Notes: a model not told the origin generated them from the sequence alone. DNA of 64,000 bases from Eubacteriales bacterium (GCA_045595395.1 JAZOAH010000008.1:27857-91856), one strand, 5' to 3'. Counted from the stretch's first letter, positions 3,111 through 26,118 are shown. Made by a program: numbers and translations.

Positions 3111-4217
3111 ATGAGAAAAAAATTTATACTCTTTGCGTTACTTTTCGTAGTGTGTCTGATTTTACCGACAAGGGCATCCGAATTTGACGGACAGGCCGCT
3201 CTGAATGAGCTGTATCAAGCAGCACCAGATCGGATAACGCAACACATAAATCAAGCACAACTCGACACCGAGTCGATTGCCGAAACCTTTCGTATCGAGT
3301 CCCTCATTGATATGCTGACATCCCAGCTGGTGTCAACCTTTACCGAAAATATCGGCATGATGATTTCGGTAATCGGTGCCCTCATCATTATCGGAATCTA
3401 TGACACTCTTCGGAATTCTTTTGCATCTAAGGGGACCGAGAAAATTGCCGACTTTTTTTGTGCCGCCGCAATCGCTTTAGTCCTCTGTCCGCCCTTGTTG
3501 GAACGCGCAAATGAACTGGGACAGGTGATTCGAGAATTATCGGACTATATGGAAATTTCCATGCCGATTCTCAGTAGCCTTTTGGTCGCATCCGGCAATG
3601 CCGCATCAGCATCCGTTCTTCATTTTTTTATCTATTATGCCGCCGTGTTGGCCGGAACACTGTTTGCTGAAGTACTGCTGCCATTAACAGGTACCTATAT
3701 GAGTATTGGTATTTCTGCTGCAATTACCGACAATGACGGATTAAAAAACTTAGCATCTTCCATTCGGACGATCACAACCAAAACCATGGTGTTTTTTTGT
3801 ACTGTTTTTACGGCGCTGTTATCACTACAGGGCTTGATTGCCGGTGCCGGAGATACCGTTTCACGGCGAACGCTTAAGTTGGCAGTTGGATCGTTTTTAC
3901 CTGTTGCTGGAAATCTAATGGCTGAATCGGTGGACACCTTCATGAGCGGGGTAGGTGTGATTCGCTCGGTGGCCGGCGTGTTCGGTGTCATTGTTATATT
4001 TTATTTGATCATCATTCCTGTTCTTAAAACACTGTCTAACTATCTTATCGTTAAAATATCAGCATTCACCGGAGACATGATCGGTACCGCACGTATGCGA
4101 TCTTTTCTGGTTATTGTTGCAGACGGGTATGGCATGATCTTGTCTATTGCTGCCGGTGTAGGTATCATGTTTATTGTGTGTTTGGCCTTTTTATTGATCA
4201 TAGGAGGAGTAACATGA
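3111..4217 (+). CDS. spoIIIAE: Stage III sporulation protein AE
   Basis: Multi-TM protein with signal peptide, GSFLPVAG motif; operon position. Confidence 0.9.
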   Translation: MRKKFILFALLFVVCLILPTRASEFDGQAALNELYQAAPDRITQHINQAQLDTESIAETFRIESLIDMLTSQLVSTFTENIGMMISVIGALIIIGIYDTLRNSFASKGTEKIADFFCAAAIALVLCPPLLERANELGQVIRELSDYMEISMPILSSLLVASGNAASASVLHFFIYYAAVLAGTLFAEVLLPLTGTYMSIGISAAITDNDGLKNLASSIRTITTKTMVFFCTVFTALLSLQGLIAGAGDTVSRRTLKLAVGSFLPVAGNLMAESVDTFMSGVGVIRSVAGVFGVIVIFYLIIIPVLKTLSNYLIVKISAFTGDMIGTARMRSFLVIVADGYGMILSIAAGVGIMFIVCLAFLLIIGGVT

Positions 4218-16060: not shown

Positions 16061-16864
16061 ATGAAGAACAAGATAGGCTTTATAGGCGCTGGCAATATGG
16101 CAGGCGCCATCATAAACGGAATCCTATCCAATATCGATCAACAAGAACTATACGTCTTTGATATAGACAAGTCCAAGTGCGAACGCTTTGGAAGTCGCGT
16201 GATCTACTGTGAATCATTAACGCTGCTTGTTCAAACCTGTGAATATCTTTTTTTTGCCATAAAACCCCAGGTTATTGATTCAGTCCTCGACCAATTAAAA
16301 ACCTTACCGATTGACTGGAATAACAAGACCATTGTCACGATGGTAGCAGGAATTTCTACCGATTATATCGCAAATCAACTTCCCTGCAACGCCATTCCTA
16401 TTGTTCGCATCATGCCGAACACACCCATTATGCTCGGTAACGGCGCAACCACGATCTGCGCAAATACTCACGTAGGCCCCCTGCAAGCAGACCTTGTCAA
16501 GTCCCTCTTGTCAGGAGCAAGTTATGTTCGCAATATTCCTGAATCGCAAATGAACTCTTCCATCAGCGTCAACGGCAGCAGTCCGGCCTACCTGTTCCTA
16601 TTTGCGAAAGCCGTAGTTGATTACGCCAAATCAGAAGGCATTGACGAAACCTGCGCACTGGAACTCTTTGCGCACACCATGCTGGGCAGCGCTAAAATGC
16701 TGCTGGAATCCAACATGGACCCACATTCCTTGATCCGCATGGTCACATCGCCCGGCGGCACAACACAAGAAGCTCTACGCGTTTTTGACGAGAGCGGCTT
16801 CGAGAAAACTGTTTTTAACGCAATGTCCGCTTGCACGAAACGTGCCGACGAACTTGGCCGATAA
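16061..16864 (+). CDS. proC: Pyrroline-5-carboxylate reductase
   Basis: IGAGNMA, RIMPNTP, GSSPAY, VTSPGGTT. Confidence 0.96.
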   Translation: MKNKIGFIGAGNMAGAIINGILSNIDQQELYVFDIDKSKCERFGSRVIYCESLTLLVQTCEYLFFAIKPQVIDSVLDQLKTLPIDWNNKTIVTMVAGISTDYIANQLPCNAIPIVRIMPNTPIMLGNGATTICANTHVGPLQADLVKSLLSGASYVRNIPESQMNSSISVNGSSPAYLFLFAKAVVDYAKSEGIDETCALELFAHTMLGSAKMLLESNMDPHSLIRMVTSPGGTTQEALRVFDESGFEKTVFNAMSACTKRADELGR

Positions 16865-16892
16865 CATATCCTTGTCCGCTTGTGAATATATT
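16864..16892 (+). promoter_or_regulatory. Candidate sigma-E promoter of spoIIM
   Basis: ACATATC-N14-AATATATT. Confidence 0.4.
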
Positions 16893-16923
16893 AGACTATA
16901 ATTCTGATAAAGGCGGACACAAT

Positions 16924-17526
16924 GTGAAACTAAAGATCAAGAAAAGGCGATTATCCCGCTACCATATAAACTCTGACAATAGAATTGGACTATTTTTGAT
17001 CAGCTCTTTGTTTTTTGGCGTAATTGTCGGGAGTCTGGTCATTACATTTTCCAATGATGTGCATAGCGTCTTGATTGGATACGCACAGAGTATTAGTACG
17101 AGCACTCCGGCAGTCAATATTTTATTAAATAATTTCATTATCAGTTTTTTATTTTTTTCCACTTTGTTTTTGCTCGGCGTGTCAGTATACGGCTATGTTT
17201 TCATCCCCGTTCTTCCGTTCATGAAAGGGTTTTCCTACGGATTCTCCGCTTCATTTTTTTATGCCGTATTCGGTGCACGAGGTATACTTGTCTGTGCGCT
17301 TGGAATTCTTCCGCAATCCTTCATATTTTCTACAGCTTTACTGATAGGTGCATATCTGTCCTTCGTCAAATCTCGCTCGTTTCGACCACGTGCGACAGAT
17401 CATTCCACCCATAGCGGCAGCATGAAAAACTATTGCCTGTTCTTCCTGATTCTGTTTTTCATTTCTTTTTCAACAACACTATTTGATATTTTTGTCACGA
17501 AACATGTAATCAACTTATTTTGTTAG
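16924..17526 (+). CDS. spoIIM: Stage II sporulation protein M
   Basis: Five-TM protein, KGFSYGF, GILPQ motifs; upstream of xerD/ripX as in other Firmicutes; GTG start inferred. Confidence 0.8.
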   Translation: MKLKIKKRRLSRYHINSDNRIGLFLISSLFFGVIVGSLVITFSNDVHSVLIGYAQSISTSTPAVNILLNNFIISFLFFSTLFLLGVSVYGYVFIPVLPFMKGFSYGFSASFFYAVFGARGILVCALGILPQSFIFSTALLIGAYLSFVKSRSFRPRATDHSTHSGSMKNYCLFFLILFFISFSTTLFDIFVTKHVINLFC

Positions 17527-17535
17527 GATATTTAT

Positions 17536-18420
17536 ATGGAGAAGATTTTAACCGGATTTCTTACTTACATTAAGGAAGAAAAGAAAGCAACAGCAAATAC
17601 TTGCGCATCCTATCGCCGCGATCTGGATGCTTATTTTTCGTTTCTGATTATACACGGCAAAAGAGATCCGCTGATTGCATCAAAAGATACATTAAACGAT
17701 TATCTTAATAATCTTAAGGATGGCGGCAAATCAGGCAACACGATTGCTCGCAACCTTTCTTCCATACGTAGTTTCTATCAATACTTAATGATTCAAGGTA
17801 AAATAGAGGAAAACCCGGCTAAAAACATTAAATACCATATCGCAGACCGCAAATTACCGGATATTCTGACCGCAGAAGAAGTGAATTTACTTCTCGAACA
17901 GCCGCAATGCACCACACCAAAAGGGTTTCGCGATAAAGCGATGTTGGAGTTATTATATGCAACCGGCATGAAGGTCACAGAACTTGTTGATCTTGAGATT
18001 CATGATGTAAATATTCATCTTGGCGTCATTCACTGCACAGGCAGCACCGGAGGGCGCATCGTCCCCATGCATAAAACTGCTGCAAAAGCTCTTGAGGATT
18101 ACATGGCAAAAATTCGCCCGCTCATGGTGGATAATAAGGAAAATACCGCTCTTTTCGTTAACACAAATGGCGCACGGCTAACACGACAGGGCTTCTGGAA
18201 AATCATCAAAGCCTACGCACACAGCGCCGGTATACATAAGGACATTACCCCACAAACGATTCGCCATTCTTTTGCTTCACACCTATTAGAGAACGGGGCG
18301 GATATAAAGGCTATTCAGGAAATGCTGGGGCATACCGACATTTCCTCCACACAATTTTATGCAAAAATAATTAAAAACCGCTATAAGGATGTATACAATA
18401 AATTTCATCCCCGCGCATAG
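17536..18420 (+). CDS. xerD: XerD/RipX-family tyrosine recombinase with substituted catalytic residues
   Basis: LTRQGFWKIIK XerD signature, RHSFASHLLENGAD, LGH..ISSTQFY; but TGMKVTE (R to K), TPQTIRH (H to Q) and no GKGxKER lysine. Confidence 0.88.
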   Translation: MEKILTGFLTYIKEEKKATANTCASYRRDLDAYFSFLIIHGKRDPLIASKDTLNDYLNNLKDGGKSGNTIARNLSSIRSFYQYLMIQGKIEENPAKNIKYHIADRKLPDILTAEEVNLLLEQPQCTTPKGFRDKAMLELLYATGMKVTELVDLEIHDVNIHLGVIHCTGSTGGRIVPMHKTAAKALEDYMAKIRPLMVDNKENTALFVNTNGARLTRQGFWKIIKAYAHSAGIHKDITPQTIRHSFASHLLENGADIKAIQEMLGHTDISSTQFYAKIIKNRYKDVYNKFHPRA

Positions 18421-18469: not shown

Positions 18470-19450
18470 TTATTCTTCATTCTTACCAACCTTGATCTTA
18501 CCCAATGGATTAGCGTTCGCTGCTTCTTCCAACTGCGTTTTCCCAAGGTGCGTGTATATCTGCGTCGTACCAAGATTTTCATGGCCCAAAACCTCTTTGA
18601 GCACACGAATATCCACGCCATTTTGAAACATAAGCGTCGCTGCCGTATGGCGTAGTTTGTGCGTAGAAAACCGTTGCGGATCCAAGCCAGCCTTTTCAAT
18701 ATATTTTTTCACCAAGTTTTGGACCATCTGATGGCTGATTCTGGTCTTACGATTACTTAAAAATAGGGCCTTTTTATCAATAACGCCGTCAACTGGGCGT
18801 ACCCGCATGTAAATATGAATCGCTTCCTGACAGGCCTCATTTAGATAAACAACACGCTCTTTGCCGCCTTTTCCTAATACTCGCAAACGATTATCGTGTA
18901 TATCGGTTAAATTGATACCAACTAATTCCGATAATCGTATTCCGGTATTTAAAAAAACCACAAGAATCGCATAATCGCGCTGACGGTTTTTTCCGTCAAC
19001 GGCAGCCAGCAGACGCAGGCATTCATCATATTCCAAATGCACCGGCAAGTTCCGTCTAGGCTTTGGAAGATCGAGATCGGCCACAGGATTAAAATCCAAC
19101 AATCCGGCTTTTACCGTTAAATACTTATAGAAGCTTCGCAACGTTGATGCTTTGCGAGCCCTGGTACGACTACGATTATTACGATCATTTGCAAGGTAAA
19201 TAAAGAACTCATAAATATCAGAAACAGTAATGGATTTAATCAGATCAATATCAACGGTGCTGATATCAATTTCTTCAAACGGAACAGAATCCGGACATAA
19301 GTTTTTTGATAAAAGTATATAACGAAAAAATGTACGTAAGTCCAGATAATATTCATCAACCGTTTTTGTTGATTTGCCTCGAATTGTCTGTGCGTGAACC
19401 AGAAACTCACGAATTGGCCCAGAAACATCAGAAAATCGGTATTTTGTCAT
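18470..19450 (-). CDS. xerC: Xer-family tyrosine recombinase (clostridial XerC-type), catalytically intact
   Basis: TGIRLSEL (R), GKGGKER (K), HKLRH (HxxR), LGHEN (H), TQIYTH (Y); GAGGGG RBS at 19458-19463. The symbol is a family label; orthology to E. coli XerC is not shown. Confidence 0.85.
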   Translation of the reverse strand: MTKYRFSDVSGPIREFLVHAQTIRGKSTKTVDEYYLDLRTFFRYILLSKNLCPDSVPFEEIDISTVDIDLIKSITVSDIYEFFIYLANDRNNRSRTRARKASTLRSFYKYLTVKAGLLDFNPVADLDLPKPRRNLPVHLEYDECLRLLAAVDGKNRQRDYAILVVFLNTGIRLSELVGINLTDIHDNRLRVLGKGGKERVVYLNEACQEAIHIYMRVRPVDGVIDKKALFLSNRKTRISHQMVQNLVKKYIEKAGLDPQRFSTHKLRHTAATLMFQNGVDIRVLKEVLGHENLGTTQIYTHLGKTQLEEAANANPLGKIKVGKNEE

Positions 19451-19466
19451 TTTTCTTCCCCTCTAA

Positions 19467-19494
19467 ATTGAACAAAATATTCATTTTGTTTAAT
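19467..19494 (+). other. attL: symmetric dif-like recombination site (11-6-11)
   Basis: ATTGAACAAAA-TATTCA-TTTTGTTTAAT; arms are inverted repeats (extend to 13 bp, 19465-19496, one mismatch); each arm matches the E. coli XerD arm TTATGTTAAAT at 9/11. Confidence 0.85.
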
Positions 19495-19496
19495 TT
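19478..19496 (+). repeat. Left 19-bp att core direct repeat
   Basis: TATTCATTTTGTTTAATTT, identical to 25113-25131. Confidence 0.95.
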
Positions 19497-19510
19497 AAGG
19501 GGGGATTTTT

Positions 19511-19600
19511 TTGTCTGTTTTAGAATGGCTTTTGTTCATGTCCGTTTCCCTGCAAGTGCTCCAATTTTTATTTTTTCTAAAGGATAGGTATCTAAAATGA
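19511..19600 (+). CDS. Prophage 29-aa hydrophobic peptide (not in ORF track)
   Basis: TTG start after AAGGGGGGA; MSVLEWLLFMSVSLQVLQFLFFLKDRYLK; ATGA overlap with the next ORF. Confidence 0.55.
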   Translation: MSVLEWLLFMSVSLQVLQFLFFLKDRYLK

Positions 19601-19782
19601 ATGAAATTAAAAATGTTAAGTTTCGTTTGAAATCTGAAATGCCCAAGTTGTCTACTGATGCCGTGCAAGAGTTTGAAGATGCTTTTTGGCGTCTTGTAGA
19701 TATGTATGGCATACCCGAGGCCTGCAATAAAACTTTGTCTATTGTTGAAGATCTTCTTGATGAGATCATGAACCATGAGTAA
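19597..19782 (+). CDS. Prophage hypothetical protein, 61 aa
   Basis: RBS-like AAGGATAGGT; part of the chain of overlapping ORFs. Confidence 0.65.
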   Translation: MNEIKNVKFRLKSEMPKLSTDAVQEFEDAFWRLVDMYGIPEACNKTLSIVEDLLDEIMNHE

Positions 19783-19942
19783 TGATGTGTATGCCGTGAA
19801 CGGCTTTTATTGGGCTTTAGATTCCCTTTGCCGTTATCATGCCGGTAATAATGATGTCATTACTACAATTCGTGCACTAGATGAAGTGCGTGAGACTCTG
19901 CTTAAAGATGCAGAATATAAAACAAATAATGAGGTGAAATAA
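19775..19942 (+). CDS. Prophage hypothetical protein, 55 aa (not in ORF track)
   Basis: MSNDVYAVNGFYWALDSLCRYHAGNNDVITTIRALDEVRETLLKDAEYKTNNEVK; overlaps both neighbours (8 nt, TAATG). Confidence 0.6.
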   Translation: MSNDVYAVNGFYWALDSLCRYHAGNNDVITTIRALDEVRETLLKDAEYKTNNEVK

Positions 19943-20055
19943 TGTATCGTTCTACTGCTCCCCGTGGTGATCACCACGTTTTCCGCCGTACTGCCGCCAG
20001 TACCAAGCGCATCAATGTGAATCCAGGTAATTATCGTGGAGGTATCCGTCTGTGA
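19942..20055 (+). CDS. Microvirus DNA-binding/packaging protein VP8 (J-like), 37 aa (not in ORF track)
   Basis: MYRSTAPRGDHHVFRRTAASTKRINVNPGNYRGGIRL with the FRRTA..K.IN..RGGIRL hallmark; GAGGTG RBS. Confidence 0.9.
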   Translation: MYRSTAPRGDHHVFRRTAASTKRINVNPGNYRGGIRL

Positions 20056-20219
20056 GTGATAAATTTCTAAAAATTTTGATGGATGCTCGGTTATTTCTTC
20101 TGGAAATCTTAAATGAGGTTGAGGATGCCGATGATCTCGGCTATATGTGCCGCAATCTTAAAACTTTACTATCTGAACATGAACTGCTCAGTATTTACAA
20201 AAAGGAGTGTCAAGAATGA
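20052..20219 (+). CDS. Prophage hypothetical protein, 55 aa (not in ORF track)
   Basis: GTG start 8 nt after GGAGGT; MSDKFLKILMDARLFLLEILNEVEDADDLGYMCRNLKTLLSEHELLSIYKKECQE; GTGA and ATGA overlaps. Confidence 0.6.
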   Translation: MSDKFLKILMDARLFLLEILNEVEDADDLGYMCRNLKTLLSEHELLSIYKKECQE

Positions 20220-20551
20220 AACAGCGCTTATATTCGATTTATGATATGCGTTCCAAAACCTATGGAATCCCTTTCGTTGCAGTAAACGACGACATTGCCA
20301 AGCGCACTGTGGCGTCGACTTTGCTCAGTGTCCCCCCTACCCATCTGATGTTTGCCTTTGCATCCGACTATGAATTATATTATCTTGGTGAGGTGATGGA
20401 AAATGGTAGTTTGGCTACGGCTGAAACTGGCGCTCAAGCAATTACTTTCCTTAGTGATATCCTTCAAGTATACAAAGTGAATGAAAAAAGAGAGGTGATT
20501 TTGAATGATGTTCGCATGCAGAACGAGCCGCAGAGAGACCACGCCGAGTAA
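20216..20551 (+). CDS. Microvirus nonstructural protein VP5 (C-like)
   Basis: LYSIYD....YGIPF....DD.A.R...DYELYYLGE...G pattern; AAAGGAG RBS favours ATG 20216. Confidence 0.85.
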   Translation: MKQRLYSIYDMRSKTYGIPFVAVNDDIAKRTVASTLLSVPPTHLMFAFASDYELYYLGEVMENGSLATAETGAQAITFLSDILQVYKVNEKREVILNDVRMQNEPQRDHAE

Positions 20552-20984
20552 GTCCGGCTCTCCTACTGCCCCTATTTTCGTTAAAGCCTTTGATGAAAAT
20601 GGTGAGCCTTATCTCGCTGAAAAAGGTGTTAAAAATATTTACGATATCATTCAGTCTTATCATGATGATACTCGTATCGAGAGCATTGTATCTCGTTATG
20701 AGCAAGGTGATAAGTCTGTCCTTGGCAAGCTGCAGGGCTTTTATGCAGATATGACTGCCCAGGCTAAAACGCTCCAAGAGGCTGAAAATGCTATGATCAA
20801 AGTAAAATCCTTGTATGATCGTATGCCTACTGCTGTGAAACATAAATTTCCTGATGTAAATTCTTTCATTGGCGCTATTGGTACTGATGATCTGAAACAG
20901 ATGCTCACGCCGGCGAAGGACACGGACAAGCCCAGTGAAGTTAAAGAAACGGTAAAGGAGAAGGTAGATAATGTTACAGCGTAA
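20505..20984 (+). CDS. Microvirus internal scaffolding protein VP3 (B-like)
   Basis: IQSYHDDTRIESIVSRYEQGD...GFYADMT...LQEAEN...YDRMPTAVKHKF pattern; directly upstream of VP1. Confidence 0.85.
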   Translation: MMFACRTSRRETTPSKSGSPTAPIFVKAFDENGEPYLAEKGVKNIYDIIQSYHDDTRIESIVSRYEQGDKSVLGKLQGFYADMTAQAKTLQEAENAMIKVKSLYDRMPTAVKHKFPDVNSFIGAIGTDDLKQMLTPAKDTDKPSEVKETVKEKVDNVTA

Positions 20985-22791
20985 TGTAAATAGCCGTTTT
21001 GCACAAAATCCCACCCTTGAAAATCAACGCTCCCGTTTTGATCGAAATAATACTTATAAGACCACTTTTAATGCTGGTGATCTCATTCCCATTTATGTTG
21101 ATTCAGATATTCTTCCCGGCGATACGGTAACTATGGATACTGCGTCTGTTGTCCGCATGTCCACCCCGATTTACCCGGTCATGGATAATGCTAATATCGA
21201 CATTTTTTGGTTCTTCGTCCCCCATCGTATTGTATGGGATGATTTTGAACACTTTATGACTGGCGGGCTCGATGCCGGCGAATGGGATGCCCCGACCGTA
21301 TATGAGCCGCCTATGGTGCGCCCTCGAACTTTTTCCTATCCTTCCGGTCAGTTTGAATACAAAGGTTATCCATCTAAAACTTTAGCGGACTATATGGGTA
21401 TTCCTTGTGGTTTTTCTGCACCTGGTGATGAGCGTGCTTTTAATACGGATATTGCCGAAGGTGTTTCTGCTCTTCCTTTCCGTGCGTATGCTAAGATCTG
21501 GAACGATTGGTTTCGGTCATCGTCGATTCAACCGGAAATTCTTATTCCGACCACTAGTGGTTTTTCTTGGCAACCCATATTTTATGTGAATGATGGCGCT
21601 CCTGTAGATGGATATAAGCAATTATATTCTTATGGTGATCATGCTAATGTTCTTGTAAAAAATGAAGGCACGACCGTTTATGGCGGTGCTTTGCTTAAGG
21701 CCAACAAATATCATGACTTTTTCACCAGCGCTCTTATCGAGCCTCAGCGTGGTGAGCCTGTCGGTGTTCCGCTTGAAGGTGCTTTGCCTGTTGTTACTAC
21801 TGGTGTTAATACATGGCATATTCCGCTGGATACTCCTCCGCTTATGTTTGCTAAACAGGACAAGGCCATGTCTGGCACATATGAAGAGGTAGGTTTTTTA
21901 CAGACAGTTGGGCCTGACAATGTTTATGCTTCGCCTGGTTCTGTATCTGCTGGTCAGGAAAATCTTAACGGTTATTGGTTAAATCCTGTTAATCTTGTTG
22001 CTGATACTTCGGTAAGCAATACATTGCAGATTTCCATTAACGATCTTCGTCATGCTATGGCTGTTCAGCACATTCTCGAACTTGACGCTCGTTCCGGATC
22101 CGGACGATATATTGACCTTTTGAAAGGTCATTTCGGTGTCACCTCTCCTGATGCTCGCCTTCAGCGTGCTGAGTATCTTGGCGGTGCCTCGATTCCCATT
22201 AACATTACTCCGGTAGCGCAGACCTCGCAGACGAGTGATGTGTCCCCTCAGGGTAATGTTGCGGCATACTCTTGGACTAGTGATGTGTCCAGTTCTTTTA
22301 CTAAGTCTTTTGTTGAGCATGGTACTTTGATGTGTCTTGCCGTTGTTCGTCATGTCAGATCTTATCAGCAAGGCCTTCACAAGATGTGGTCACGGCCGAC
22401 CCGCTACGATCACTATTGGCCGTCTTTGGCTAATATATCTGAACAGGCTATCCTCAACAAGGAGATCTTTGTTTCCGGTGATCCGGAAATAGATAACCAG
22501 GTTTTTGGATATCAAGAGGCCTTTGCCGAGTATCGTTATAAGCCTAGTATTGTTACTGGCGCTATGCGTTCCTCTTATCCGCAGCCGTTGGACGCTTGGC
22601 ATTATGCTGACTATTATACCGGCACGCCGCATCTGTCCTCTGAATGGTTGCAGGAAGGTAGTGAAGAAATTGACCGCACACTTGCAGTTTCTTCGGCTGT
22701 TGAAGATCAGTTTATCGGTGACTTTGCGTTCAACTCCCAGTGGTACCGTGTAATGCCGATGTATTCGATCCCTGGCCTCGATCGCATGTAA
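20971..22791 (+). CDS. Microvirus major capsid protein VP1 (F-like), 606 aa
   Basis: RSRFDR..TYKTTFNAGDLIP, PGDT, PVMDN, FFVPHRIVW, LPFRAY..IWNDWFR, DARLQRAEYLGG, FGYQEAFAEYRYKPS, MPMYSIPGL. Confidence 0.98.
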   Translation: MLQRNVNSRFAQNPTLENQRSRFDRNNTYKTTFNAGDLIPIYVDSDILPGDTVTMDTASVVRMSTPIYPVMDNANIDIFWFFVPHRIVWDDFEHFMTGGLDAGEWDAPTVYEPPMVRPRTFSYPSGQFEYKGYPSKTLADYMGIPCGFSAPGDERAFNTDIAEGVSALPFRAYAKIWNDWFRSSSIQPEILIPTTSGFSWQPIFYVNDGAPVDGYKQLYSYGDHANVLVKNEGTTVYGGALLKANKYHDFFTSALIEPQRGEPVGVPLEGALPVVTTGVNTWHIPLDTPPLMFAKQDKAMSGTYEEVGFLQTVGPDNVYASPGSVSAGQENLNGYWLNPVNLVADTSVSNTLQISINDLRHAMAVQHILELDARSGSGRYIDLLKGHFGVTSPDARLQRAEYLGGASIPINITPVAQTSQTSDVSPQGNVAAYSWTSDVSSSFTKSFVEHGTLMCLAVVRHVRSYQQGLHKMWSRPTRYDHYWPSLANISEQAILNKEIFVSGDPEIDNQVFGYQEAFAEYRYKPSIVTGAMRSSYPQPLDAWHYADYYTGTPHLSSEWLQEGSEEIDRTLAVSSAVEDQFIGDFAFNSQWYRVMPMYSIPGLDRM

Positions 22792-22805
22792 GCCTATCCC
22801 GTCCA

Positions 22806-22850
22806 TTGCCCGGTATGCCCTCGTGACCTCTGCCGGGCACAATTTTTATT
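22806..22850 (+). terminator. Stem-loop after VP1 (candidate weak terminator)
   Basis: TGCCCGGTA-N15-TGCCGGGCA then CAATTTTTATT. Confidence 0.45.
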
Positions 22851-22860
22851 GAGGTGTATT

Positions 22861-23013
22861 ATGAATCAGATCCAATTAGAAAGTGTTTTAGATGCTATTG
22901 AGCATAAACTAGATATTCTTTTCGATTCCTGTACTGGTGTTCAGTTGTTTGATATTTATGGTTACCTTCGTGATGAATCAGATCGTTTTCTAAAAAAGTA
23001 TATTGATGCATAA
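22861..23013 (+). CDS. Prophage hypothetical protein, 50 aa (not in ORF track)
   Basis: GAGGTG RBS; MNQIQLESVLDAIEHKLDILFDSCTGVQLFDIYGYLRDESDRFLKKYIDA; stop overlaps the VP2 RBS (TAAGGAG). Confidence 0.65.
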   Translation: MNQIQLESVLDAIEHKLDILFDSCTGVQLFDIYGYLRDESDRFLKKYIDA

Positions 23014-23024
23014 GGAGTGATTTT

Positions 23025-23711
23025 ATGCTTGCTCAACATGCCGGTGGTGGTTTTGCCGCAGGTAATTCCGCTAGTAATATTCTTAATGGAAAAACTAACG
23101 GTAATACTCTTGTCGGTGCTTTTGATGCGTATGCGCAAGATTTTGCATTAAGTAGTGGTAATTATATTGCCCCGCTTATAAATGGTCTTTATGACTCTAT
23201 TTTGAGTGCTGAGCAGACCAGTGCAAATAAGCAGATGGCATTTCAGCGAGAGCAGAATGAACTTGCTATGTCTTATAATTCTTCTGAGGCGCAGAAAGCG
23301 CGTGATTTTAATGCTGAACAAGCCGCAATTAATCGTCAATTTCAGCAAACTAGTGCTGATAAGCAGATGGCGTTTCAGGAGCGTATGAGTAATACTCAGT
23401 ATCAGCGTGCTGTTGAGGATCTGAAGAAAGCCGGATTGAATCCTATTCTTGCCGCAGGTGCTAGCGCATCTTCCCCGGCTGGATCCTCGGCCTCCGGCTC
23501 TTCGGCCTCCGGTGCGTCTTCCGCAATTTCTGCAATGTCGGGATCTAAGGCTAATGCCTCCGGTGCTGGTTCCTCTGCTGTTTCTGCTTTTAATGCTCTA
23601 CTTGGATTTATTGGTAATCAATCGGAAATGTATAATTCCGGCATGCAAGGTCTTACTGGTCTTGCCAATCGTGCATTTTCTCTTTTAGGTGTTAATGCAA
23701 AACGCCGTTGA
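23025..23711 (+). CDS. Microvirus DNA pilot protein VP2 (H-like), 228 aa
   Basis: FQERMSNTQYQRAVEDLKKAGLNPILA motif, 11-residue coiled-coil repeats, Ser/Ala/Gly-rich tail. Confidence 0.93.
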   Translation: MLAQHAGGGFAAGNSASNILNGKTNGNTLVGAFDAYAQDFALSSGNYIAPLINGLYDSILSAEQTSANKQMAFQREQNELAMSYNSSEAQKARDFNAEQAAINRQFQQTSADKQMAFQERMSNTQYQRAVEDLKKAGLNPILAAGASASSPAGSSASGSSASGASSAISAMSGSKANASGAGSSAVSAFNALLGFIGNQSEMYNSGMQGLTGLANRAFSLLGVNAKRR

Positions 23712-23843
23712 TTATCCATATACTTCTTGTAGTGTTTCAAGGAACATTTGCATTGCTTTGAATCTACTCGTATAGTCAAGTAATATGATTACTAAAACTA
23801 TAACGGTTATTGCAAGTATTGCTATGGTGATATTTTTCCACAT
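23712..23843 (-). CDS. Prophage antisense 43-aa single-TM protein (not in ORF track)
   Basis: MWKNITIAILAITVIVLVIILLDYTSRFKAMQMFLETLQEVYG; GAAAGGA RBS 8 nt upstream; stop abuts the VP2 stop exactly. Confidence 0.7.
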   Translation of the reverse strand: MWKNITIAILAITVIVLVIILLDYTSRFKAMQMFLETLQEVYG

Positions 23844-23866
23844 GGTCCCTTTCCTTTCTATTCAGC

Positions 23867-23875
23867 ATTGTAGCA
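23867..23875 (-). promoter_or_regulatory. Extended -10 promoter candidate for the antisense gene
   Basis: TGcTACAAT on the minus strand, placing the start of transcription near 23860 just ahead of the RBS; no good -35. Confidence 0.5.
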
Positions 23876-23960
23876 ATTTTTATTTGACAAGCTGTACAGT
23901 TCCCGAGCCGAAAGCCGCCTTGCGGCGAACCCGGCACCGTCCAGTTGTAATTGACGGATG

Positions 23961-23997
23961 CTCAGCCCCATTACCCTCTTGATGTAATGGGGCTGAG
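23961..23997 (+). other. Viral-strand rolling-circle origin hairpin
   Basis: Perfect 14-bp stem CTCAGCCCCATTAC/GTAATGGGGCTGAG with loop CCTCTTGAT, matching the phiX174 nick core CTTG^AT; just upstream of rep. Confidence 0.85.
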
Positions 23998-24028
23998 TGA
24001 CACAATTTACAGAAAAGAGGTGATAATT

Positions 24029-25105
24029 GTGTCTTGTGATTGTCCTAATATTGGTATCTTTAAGCGTGGCCTAGATGGTAAACGTGAACTTGTGAAAATG
24101 TTTCAGTATGTACCGGATAAGATGATTGATAATTACTACAAAGATTATTGTAATCTCTTTGCCGATAAATCCGATACTGAGATAAAATACCAAAAGACCG
24201 CTGATGGATACCATGAAATTATGCTTTTGCCTTGTGGTAAGTGTATAGGTTGTCGGTTAGAGTATTCTCGTCAATGGGCGATGCGTTGTACTCTTGAGGC
24301 TCTACAGCATGAGTGCAATTATTTTGTTACCCTCACTTATGATGACCTTTCTGTCCCTACAAACCCCTACAAGTTGTGTTGTGATCCTGATACTGGCCTT
24401 GTTACACATGATGGTCATTCTCATCCCCTTGTTCCGGATGATCTGAAGAAATTTATTAAGGACTTGCGCCGTCATTATGAGTATCATTATAACCATAAAG
24501 GTATTAGGTTTTTCGCTTGTGGTGAGTATGGCGGTAAGACCGCACGCCCTCATTTCCATATCATACTGTTTAATTGCCCAATTTTAGACCTAGAACTTTA
24601 CAAGAGGAATTTTCAAGGAAAGCCTTACTTTAATTCAAAAACATTTGACAAGATATGGAATAAAGGTTATACTGTTATTGCAGAGTGTTGTTTTGATACT
24701 TGCGCCTATGTTGCCCGGTATATCATGAAAAAGCAGACCGGACAAAACAGGGTTATTTATGACAATCTCGATGTAACTCCTGAATTTACTCGCATGTCAA
24801 GAAAGCCCGGCATAGGCCGAACTTATTTTGATGAAAATCTAGATAAGATCTACACCTATGATCAAGTTACCTTGCTAGGTGCAGATGGTAAAGCATTACA
24901 GCCCTGCCCGCCTAAATACTTTGATAAGATTTATGCGGAACTCGAGCCTGACCACTTTGAAGAGGTCAAGCAAAAACGGCTTGTTAATCAAGCCAAAGTA
25001 GAAAGGAGTCGTGAATATCAAACAGGTTTATCCAAGGCAACTCATATCCACATGCAAACGCACGAGCGTGATCGTGCAATTCTCGCTCTAAAACGGCAGA
25101 ATTAG
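24029..25105 (+). CDS. Microvirus replication initiator VP4 (HUH endonuclease, A-like), 358 aa
   Basis: PCGKCIGCRL, FVTLTY (motif I), RPHFHIILF (HUH), YVARYIMKK (motif III, two Tyr), MSRKPGIG; GTG start after GAGGTG gives MSCDCP. Confidence 0.96.
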   Translation: MSCDCPNIGIFKRGLDGKRELVKMFQYVPDKMIDNYYKDYCNLFADKSDTEIKYQKTADGYHEIMLLPCGKCIGCRLEYSRQWAMRCTLEALQHECNYFVTLTYDDLSVPTNPYKLCCDPDTGLVTHDGHSHPLVPDDLKKFIKDLRRHYEYHYNHKGIRFFACGEYGGKTARPHFHIILFNCPILDLELYKRNFQGKPYFNSKTFDKIWNKGYTVIAECCFDTCAYVARYIMKKQTGQNRVIYDNLDVTPEFTRMSRKPGIGRTYFDENLDKIYTYDQVTLLGADGKALQPCPPKYFDKIYAELEPDHFEEVKQKRLVNQAKVERSREYQTGLSKATHIHMQTHERDRAILALKRQN

Positions 25106-25129
25106 AGAATAGTATTCATTTTGTTTAAT
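25102..25129 (+). other. attR: hybrid dif-like site with degenerate phage arm
   Basis: TTAGAGAATAG-TATTCA-TTTTGTTTAAT; the left arm matches the host arm at only 5/11 and contains the VP4 stop codon. Confidence 0.8.
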
Positions 25130-25131
25130 TT
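25113..25131 (+). repeat. Right 19-bp att core direct repeat
   Basis: TATTCATTTTGTTTAATTT, identical to 19478-19496. Confidence 0.95.
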
Positions 25132-25156
25132 TATCATAAAATATAACTATTGTCAA
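25128..25156 (-). promoter_or_regulatory. Sigma-A promoter, inferred native promoter of the recombinase gene, now facing antisense into VP4
   Basis: TTGACA (25156-25151)-N17-TAAAAT (25133-25128) with extended TG; the -10 box overlaps the att repeat. Confidence 0.8.
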
Positions 25157-25203: not shown

Positions 25204-26118
25204 ATGTGGAATGAATTAGTTATTACGATTGCCGCAAAAAACTGCGATTTGGCCGCAAATATTTTAACGGTTTTGAATCATGATGGTATGTTTATTGAAG
25301 ATTTTTCTGATCTCATGGAAAATGACGCAGTGAAACAAACCAATCTTGTTGAGCAAGAATTATTAGATAAAATCTACAATGATCCCATCATCCACCTCTA
25401 CATCTCCCCTAATCAAAATCTAGCGGAAATGACACAATCCGCTCAGTCGTTATTGGATCAAAACCAAATTGAATATCATCTTGACGTAAAAGAAATTCCT
25501 GACAAAAACTGGAACGAAGAATGGATGAAATATTATAAGCCGGTGCATATCAATGACCGTTTAACCATTGTTCCTCGCTGGTTAAATTATAAGCCACAGA
25601 CGGACGAGTTGACGGTTTTATTAGATCCGGGCGCAGCCTTTGGAACCGGCACCCATGAAACAACAAAACTTTGCTTGGATGCATTAACCCGATACGTAAA
25701 AAATAATGACCGCATCCTCGATGTCGGTACAGGAAGCGGCATTTTAGCGATCACCTCTCTCCTTCTTGGCGCTAAATCAGCCGACGCTATTGATATTGAC
25801 CCTCTCTCCGTTAAGGCAGCCGGCGAAAACGCCAGATTAAACCATGTTCACGAGAAATTAAGCGTAAAGCTTGGTAGCTTGCTTGATGAAGCAACCGGGC
25901 ACTATCAGGTCATAACTGCCAATATTGTGGCCGACGTTATCATCTCCATGCTATCCGATCTAAAGCAACACATGAATACCGAAAGTACACTGATCCTCTC
26001 CGGCATCATTCGTGAGCGCGCACAAGATGTTCTAGATGCACTCAGCAAACATTCCTATCGTATAAAAGAGCATTTGCAAGACGGTGAATGGGTTGCATTT
26101 GTCGTAAGTATACAATAA
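25204..26118 (+). CDS. prmA: Ribosomal protein L11 methyltransferase
   Basis: WMKYYKP, DPGAAFGTGTHETT, LDVGTGSGILAI, ILSGII. Confidence 0.96.
   Translation: MWNELVITIAAKNCDLAANILTVLNHDGMFIEDFSDLMENDAVKQTNLVEQELLDKIYNDPIIHLYISPNQNLAEMTQSAQSLLDQNQIEYHLDVKEIPDKNWNEEWMKYYKPVHINDRLTIVPRWLNYKPQTDELTVLLDPGAAFGTGTHETTKLCLDALTRYVKNNDRILDVGTGSGILAITSLLLGAKSADAIDIDPLSVKAAGENARLNHVHEKLSVKLGSLLDEATGHYQVITANIVADVIISMLSDLKQHMNTESTLILSGIIRERAQDVLDALSKHSYRIKEHLQDGEWVAFVVSIQ

Follow-up and report, generated by a model that had tools for sequence, protein, structure and literature searches.

The DNA considered here is a window of 64,000 nucleotides, positions 27857-91856 of contig C8 (113,885 bp; JAZOAH010000008.1), from a Eubacteriales bacterium whose metagenome-type assembly (GCA_045595395.1, referred to as G000) comprises 1.43 Mb in 29 contigs and is 94% complete. 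Between the host gene for a XerC-like tyrosine recombinase and the host gene prmA, the window carries an element with the genes of a gokushovirus-type microvirus. The element is bounded by two copies of an exact 19-nt direct repeat, TATTCATTTTGTTTAATTT, whose starts are 5,635 nt apart, in agreement with the exact 19-bp repeats and the 5,635-bp circle described in an earlier note on this DNA. The phage DNA has a G+C content of 42.5%, compared with 46.8% in the remaining window. The features of the locus are collected in Table 1.

Table 1. Features of the prophage locus, in window coordinates counted from the first letter of the 64,000-nt window (scores are as given by the family searches).
Feature	Position	Strand	Description
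Host xerD	17536..18420	+	294 aa; TIGR02225 338.2 bits, cut-off 329.6; convergent with the XerC-like gene
Host XerC-like tyrosine recombinase	18470..19450	-	326 aa; PF00589 9.8e-39
attL, host-type dif	19467..19494	.	ATTGAACAAAA / TATTCA / TTTTGTTTAAT; 28 bp, 11-6-11; 16 nt upstream of the XerC-like start codon
Direct repeat copy 1	19478..19496	.	dif central 6 bp, one 11-bp arm and 2 nt
Phage-unique DNA	19497..25112	+	5,616 bp; with one repeat copy gives a 5,635-bp circle
orfA	19597..19782	+	61 aa; no family
orfB	19775..19942	+	55 aa; no family
VP8-like small basic peptide (tentative)	19942..20055	+	37 aa; phrog_10695, E 1.3e-4, function unknown
orfC	20052..20219	+	55 aa; no family
VP5 (ORF5 family)	20216..20551	+	111 aa; PF20577 4.9e-13; phrog_1670 2.1e-14
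VP3 internal scaffolding protein	20505..20984	+	159 aa; PF09675 Chlamy_scaf 1.8e-22
VP1 major capsid protein	20971..22791	+	606 aa; PF02305 8e-146, profile positions 4-501 of 501; phrog_514 1e-183
orfD	22861..23013	+	50 aa; no family; between VP1 and VP2
VP2 DNA pilot protein	23025..23711	+	228 aa; phrog_8742 and others, E down to 2.4e-26
orfE	23712..23843	-	43 aa, hydrophobic, membrane-like; no family; opposite strand to all phage genes
Hairpin	23961..23997	+	perfect 14-bp stem, 9-nt loop; just upstream of VP4; candidate origin/priming hairpin
VP4 rolling-circle replication initiator	24029..25105	+	358 aa from GTG 24029; PF23343 1.8e-17; phrog_942 1.9e-99
attR, phage-type dif-like site	25102..25129	.	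TTAGAGAATAG / TATTCA / TTTTGTTTAAT; first 4 nt overlap the VP4 stop codon
Direct repeat copy 2	25113..25131	.	exact repeat of copy 1
Host promoter-like site	25128..25156	-	TTGACA, 17 nt, TAAAAT, upstream TG; 11/12 matches
Host prmA	25204..26118	+	TIGR00406 237.8 bits, cut-off 183.15; right-hand neighbour of the empty site

The five core genes of the phage (VP5, VP3, VP1, VP2 and VP4) all lie on the + strand, are full length and have no internal stops, and they follow the gene order of four GenBank relatives (VP1-VP2-VP4). The capsid gene, like the phage DNA as a whole, is present in a single copy in G000. The VP2 protein gives no match in a Pfam search; it matches 17 PHROG families, mostly annotated as 'pilot protein for DNA ejection', and shares 34-42% identity with the VP2 proteins of the four GenBank relatives in tblastn comparisons. 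The VP4 reading frame is open from a TTG at 23951, and its translation contains the stretches HFHIILF and YVARYIMKK, which we take to be the HUH and tyrosine motifs of the family. The earlier note claimed a full gokushovirus-like gene set from VP8 to VP4; this holds for the five core genes, but the name VP8 is tentative, because its support consists of a weak PHROG match and of its position, which is that of a 'DNA binding protein' gene in the GenBank relatives. Just upstream of VP4, the hairpin folds with a minimum free energy of -17.5 kcal/mol for an 81-nt stretch (z -5.3), a value equalled by none of 200 shuffled sequences. The perfect stem of the hairpin that the note had called an origin is confirmed, while its role as a replication origin or priming site is a plausible guess. 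It was rejected as a terminator since the T-run expected after the stem is absent on both strands.

None of the 11 open reading frames (ORFs) between the repeats matches an integrase or a recombinase in Pfam or PHROGs, and those without a family encode peptides of 43-61 aa. The description of the element as integrase-less thus applies to the DNA inside the repeats, with the caveat that two host tyrosine recombinase genes lie directly beside its left end. These two are the only full-length tyrosine recombinase (Xer-type) genes of G000. The product of one exceeds the curated cut-off for XerD. The product of the other scores 222.8 bits with the XerC model TIGR02224 (cut-off 335.15), 205.6 bits with the XerD model and 201.3 bits with the XerA model, the last two also being below cut-off; because it does not reach the curated XerC cut-off and scores similarly with the XerD and XerA models, the gene is named XerC-like rather than XerC. 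Of 30 same-order relatives, 26 have an ortholog of the XerC-like protein (41-91% identity, E <= 1e-74), the four without a strong match being 69, 80, 85 and 100% complete, and in at least 10 relatives an XerD-type match is found on the same contig within ~1.1 kb of the ortholog. Judging from this distribution, the XerC-like gene is a conserved host gene and not phage cargo. G000 also encodes FtsK with a gamma domain.

The site at the left end of the element has two arms that are complementary at 10 of 11 positions in G000 and at 11 of 11 positions in seven relative loci. Of 11 relative loci, 10 have this site upstream of the XerC-like gene; the arms are conserved and the centres vary by species, which is the pattern expected of recombinase-binding arms around a crossover region. 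Even with 5 mismatches allowed, G000 contains no second copy of the site. With 2 or fewer mismatches, 17 of 31 genomes contain the pattern (16 of them once, one of them twice) and 14 lack it; as a control, the reversed pattern gives matches only from 3 mismatches, a level at which matches to the true pattern are no commoner. In the one-contig relative G020, the one closed genome in which the terminus position was checked, the site is at 1,145,998 of ~2.2 Mb (~52%, with the genome size rounded) and dnaA is at 22-1320, which places the site opposite the origin. On contig C8, coding is mostly on the + strand before the site and mostly on the - strand after it, and the cumulative G-C curve reaches its maximum 5-11 kb to the left of the site. 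Predictions of dif sites use uniqueness, terminus position and palindromic arms as criteria (Kono et al. 2011, PMC3025954). On the grounds of its conservation, its copy number, its position in G020 and its position on C8, the site is identified as the chromosomal dif of the host.

The first base of the 19-nt repeat is exactly the first base of the dif centre; from there the repeat extends over the centre and the right arm and 2 nt beyond. At the right end of the element, attR is identical to attL in the centre and in one arm, and the other arm matches at 5 of 11 positions. A host-type attL combined with a phage-type attR is the product expected of recombination inside the shared centre. When the 5,635 bp are removed, the deduced empty site is collinear with the locus of the same-genus genome G002, with ~45 nt identical across the junction. 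In 7 of 11 relative loci, the XerC-like gene, dif and prmA follow one another without interruption, so that the empty locus whose absence from relatives would have spoken against the earlier note is indeed found in them. Integration through Xer and dif, which the note had mentioned by analogy only, is here visible at the locus itself as an insertion located at dif. The phage DNA was not found in any of the 30 relatives searched, including seven of the same genus, and the prophage appears for this reason, and by its lower G+C content, to be recent and foreign. The capsid family turned up in no genome other than G000 in samples of 401 genomes from the order, 399 scored genomes from the class (two were unscored) and 46 genomes from one further family, three samples that overlap in part.

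These observations are best explained by a genuine, complete and recently acquired gokushovirus-type prophage that was integrated at the host dif by the host Xer recombinases, a reading to which we give a probability of roughly 80%. In the proposed mechanism, a dif-like site on the double-stranded replicative form would recombine with the chromosomal dif, and the catalyst would be the XerC-like protein and/or XerD, both of which are encoded beside dif; the host enzymes are implicated because no integrase is encoded by the phage. Located right after VP4, the phage site would offer one perfect recombinase-binding arm, the identical 6-bp centre and an unrelated second arm. Exchange within the common centre would then leave an intact host-type dif on the left (attL) and a phage-type site on the right (attR). 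As attL and attR have the same centre in direct orientation, excision of the circle by the same enzymes should be possible. Lysogeny is probably reversible rather than classically 'induced', and virions would presumably be produced.

Several points weigh against this reading. The XerC-like protein falls below the curated XerC, XerD and XerA cut-offs, and the two arms of dif are near-identical, so the assignment of enzymes to arms and the sufficiency of a single enzyme are undecidable from the sequence. By comparison with the E. coli gokushovirus EC6098, the phage site would be expected to need two arms, whereas only one is recognisable here. The GC-skew peak is displaced by 5-11 kb from the site. 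No CRISPR (clustered regularly interspaced short palindromic repeats) spacer-like match to the phage was found elsewhere in G000 (the best being 18 nt, E 0.1), nor was any CRISPR-like array found in a simple scan. The main limitation is that the element comes from a metagenome-type assembly of 29 contigs, in which a free phage with the same 19 nt threaded through dif would look identical. That such threading took place, with an abundant free microvirus joined into the bacterial contig through the 19-nt dif match and no integrated copy in existence, is nonetheless quite improbable. Threading through a repeat and site-specific integration do yield the same sequence, the assembly is fragmented, and it has been cautioned that most of the microviruses attributed to Gram-positive bacteria lie in binned metagenomic sequences (PMC9239249). 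However, the contig of 113,885 bp has host genes on both sides of the element, and two related capsid genes are likewise located on long NCBI contigs. The repeat is also shorter than the word sizes usual in metagenome assemblers, so that a join through it is not expected. Moreover, a free phage would still carry the exact centre and one exact arm of the host dif, which in itself implies Xer-mediated integration into this host.

If the integration is accepted as real, the element could still be a cryptic remnant, unable to excise, to replicate or to form particles. The second arm of attR, being unrelated to the host arm, might block excision, and VP8 is weakly supported. Such a dead element is unlikely in view of the five full-length core genes without stops, the Rep motif stretches in VP4, the identical centres of attL and attR, and an absence from all 30 relatives, seven of them of the same genus, that makes the insertion recent. 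It is highly improbable that a different recombinase, from a helper element or from a phage protein of unknown family, carried out the integration and that the dif position is a coincidence. The five small ORFs without family (orfA to orfE) leave some room for such a protein, but at 43-61 aa they are too short, the repeat corresponds base for base to the dif centre and one arm, and the only two full-length tyrosine recombinase genes of G000 both adjoin the site. Integration of a complete phage at dif by the host Xer enzymes is preferred to all three alternatives.

The insertion also changes what precedes the XerC-like gene. In the locus without the phage, the host promoter-like site listed in Table 1 points through dif toward the XerC-like gene, and its -10 box shares the outer 2 nt of dif. 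Six of 10 relative loci (L003-L007 and L009), all from the host's own family, have TTGACA at an equal spacing; in that family, the leader has the order promoter (-10 TAAAAT or TATAAT), dif, Shine-Dalgarno sequence and start codon (19451-19494 in the window), with xerD convergent alongside. With the promoter placed in this way, dif forms part of the leader of the XerC-like gene, an arrangement which suggests that the recombinase may be autoregulated by binding to its own leader site. No description of dif in a leader in double-recombinase systems was found in the parts of the literature covered. In the lysogen, the promoter-like site stays at the right end of the element and is now directed antisense into VP4, and a scan of ~900 nt of phage DNA before the XerC-like gene found no promoter-like site. 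It is conceivable, if rather doubtful, that the insertion separates the XerC-like gene from its promoter and turns this promoter against VP4, and would thereby lower the amount of the excising enzyme and damp phage replication. If true, this would amount to a self-stabilising Xer-dependent lysogeny, a form that has not been described for any integrative mobile element that exploits Xer (IMEX).

The capsid protein places the element, on sequence grounds, in the Microviridae and in the gokushovirus-type (non-phiX) lineage. The best solved relatives of VP1 are 8des_A (2.6e-111) and 9cgm_A (1.3e-102), compared with ~1e-7 for the F proteins of phiX174 and G4, and VP1 is 46.5-46.6% identical to the GenBank records named Gokushovirus WZ-2015a. 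The 5,635-bp length, known here from sequence, fits that of the nearest GenBank genomes (5.2-5.8 kb). VP1 matches 3,498 GenBank phage records, each with less than 60% identity, the best (49.2%) being a rodent-faeces microvirus of 5,620 nt. Full-length identity reaches at most 41-44% against IMG/VR and metagenome contigs, with 43% for the best full-length match in a metagenome contig scan, and a scan of genome contigs gave three loci with partial matches of 34-51% on contigs of up to 4.3 kb. In a large protein collection, VP1 has 12 relatives at 55-75% identity, followed by a gap down to 49% or less. Two of the 12 (P0002 and P0005) are on NCBI contigs of 324,937 and 60,738 bp, and because of these long contigs they are probably other prophages; the contigs of the rest measure 2.7-6.2 kb, which corresponds to a whole phage genome or to part of one, and include ENA contigs of 5.9-6.2 kb for P0003 and P0004. 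A quick maximum-likelihood tree with a midpoint root was made from 40 of 120 listed proteins (P0001-P0013 and every fourth of P0014-P0118). It places VP1 and the 12 relatives (13 rows) on one side of a branch with a Shimodaira-Hasegawa-like approximate likelihood ratio test (SH-aLRT) support of 100, and the three long-contig members within one six-member subgroup (support 87).

In a search for the host dif arm in 80 IMG/VR microvirus loci, 47 loci had a match at up to 1 mismatch, compared with 11-23 in 20 shuffles. The excess is largely due to one 35-nt motif that recurs in many closely related freshwater microvirus contigs (such as L019:3509-3543, L020, L021, L024, L033 and L038). This motif, whose last part is the host dif arm with one mismatch, was rejected as a dif site, as the palindromic partner arm is absent and the contigs are not independent. 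In 83 further loci (79 from IMG/VR and four from GenBank) 23 had a match compared with 21-32 in shuffles, and hence no enrichment of the arm.

Among the small phage ORFs, orfD has a counterpart in position, since a hypothetical ORF is also found between VP1 and VP2 in the GenBank relatives. The spacer between VP2 and VP4 that contains orfE measures 317 nt, compared with 27 nt in the two closest GenBank relatives. From its sequence, orfE could be a lysis or exclusion gene. A purine-rich stretch resembling a ribosome-binding site precedes it. A minus-strand ORF of 93 aa (19495-19776) was rejected as a gene, having no family and a composition that resembles the antisense of orfA.

The host is, by its gene content, a Firmicute with core sporulation genes. 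Spo0A (TIGR02875, 278.1 bits, cut-off 200) is encoded on contig C12 and SpoIVA (TIGR02836, 634.8 bits, cut-off 459.9) on C8, the contig of the prophage; in a control of the SpoIVA model, a signal was obtained in Bacillus subtilis only. The statement of the earlier note that the microvirus is integrated among housekeeping and sporulation genes of a Firmicute is borne out by these two proteins and by the flanking host genes, which include xerD, the XerC-like recombinase gene, prmA, an aminopeptidase gene, coaE, tsaC, prfA, recN, spoIIIAE and a weak spoIIM match. Carriage in spores, which the earlier note had suggested, would be expected of any chromosomal prophage, so this point adds little. The sporulation genes spoIVA, spoIIIAE and the weak spoIIM match (2-970, 3111-4217 and 16831-17526 in the window) are at most 20 kb from the terminus-side dif and near xerD. 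The G+C content is 46.8% for C8 and 47.0% for C2, and 49-58% for most other contigs, which may reflect regional variation near the terminus or a binning problem. The C8 genes have their best matches (77-91%) in genomes from the genus that the assembly is assigned to, and thus there is no sign that C8 is misplaced at the genus level.

Some variation was seen among the relatives. Two perfect 11-6-11 sites are present in G013, one on contig C24 (58504-58531) and one on contig C42 (5107-5134), and their centres differ; this could mark another Xer-exploiting element or a second replicon. Of two genomes that are 100% complete, G025 has neither a strong XerC-like ortholog nor the dif pattern, and G015 has the ortholog but, even with 3 mismatches allowed, gives no match to the dif pattern. 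The order is thus not uniform in its Xer/dif system.

Gokushovirus-like microviruses with unknown hosts abound in viromes from the gut and the environment, and Gram-positive hosts are barely documented. The locus links a deeply diverged phage lineage, with base precision, to a small-genome Firmicute that has sporulation genes. The hijacking of Xer and dif has been proven in E. coli, and the sequence of this locus indicates that it is used in Firmicutes also. The locus pins down, in addition, the dif of a poorly studied bacterial order, which can be used to find other Xer-exploiting elements and to predict the hosts of free microviruses from their dif-like sites. The mechanism is known from Enterobacteria; what is added here is a diverged lineage, a new host group and unusually clean evidence on the integration site.

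The closest known system is that of the enterobacterial EC6098-type prophages. For the E. coli gokushovirus EC6098, integration that depends on XerC/XerD and on the dif motif was shown experimentally; the genes xerC and xerD are required, as are the two arms of the phage motif, and in lysogens the phage is continuously lost and acquired again (Kirchberger and Ochman 2020, PMC7062461). As in that type, the element described here is an integrase-less phage of the gokushovirus type that has the conserved dif of the bacterium at one end and, at the other, a phage motif that is more divergent. Retention of both motifs makes the integration of EC6098 reversible (PMC7062461). Unlike the EC6098 type, the present element is found in a Firmicute with sporulation genes rather than in Enterobacteriaceae, it measures 5.6 kb rather than 4.3-4.7 kb, and its phage site, known here from sequence, is perfect in one arm and the centre and unrelated in the second arm. 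The Xer route was also proposed for the Bacteroidetes proviruses of the BMV/Alpavirinae group, in which no integrase is found, dif-like direct repeats are present, the empty site was deduced from a provirus-free relative and the role of Xer was inferred, all as in this case (Krupovic and Forterre 2011, PMC3091885). Those proviruses differ in capsid lineage and in host phylum, and the position of the site at the terminus, which was uncheckable in that study, was checked here in a closed relative.

The novelty of a microvirus prophage in a Gram-positive host was overstated in the earlier note, as complete microvirus prophages had been reported in 2022 from two Firmicutes isolates (Erysipelatoclostridium and Mammaliicoccus sciuri) as the first Gram-positive cases (Kirchberger et al. 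2022, PMC9239249). The present element resembles them in being a complete microvirus prophage in a Gram-positive genome. The words dif, Xer and integrase do not occur in the main text of that report, which gives no mechanism of integration, and a literature search found no paper that joins Microviridae, prophage, Clostridia and XerD.

The element has the features of an IMEX, in that it encodes no recombinase of its own and is located at the chromosomal dif, where it is flanked by dif and a dif-like site. It is like TLC-phi and the gonococcal island in that one arm and the centre agree with the host dif, the other arm being highly divergent, and in the presence of two flanking Xer sites (PMC5357621). 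It differs from them in kind, since TLC-phi is a filamentous satellite phage and the gonococcal island is 57 kb long, both being from Proteobacteria (PMC5357621), and the conserved arm cannot be assigned here to the XerC or the XerD side because the host arms are near-palindromic. The linkage of a recombinase gene to its own dif is shared with the XerS/difSL and XerH/difH systems (PMC5357621). Unlike in those systems, a canonical XerD is encoded next door, the XerS model scores only 149.7 bits (cut-off 267), and the site is a 28-bp 11-6-11 sequence with near-identical arms rather than a 31-bp site as in difSL.

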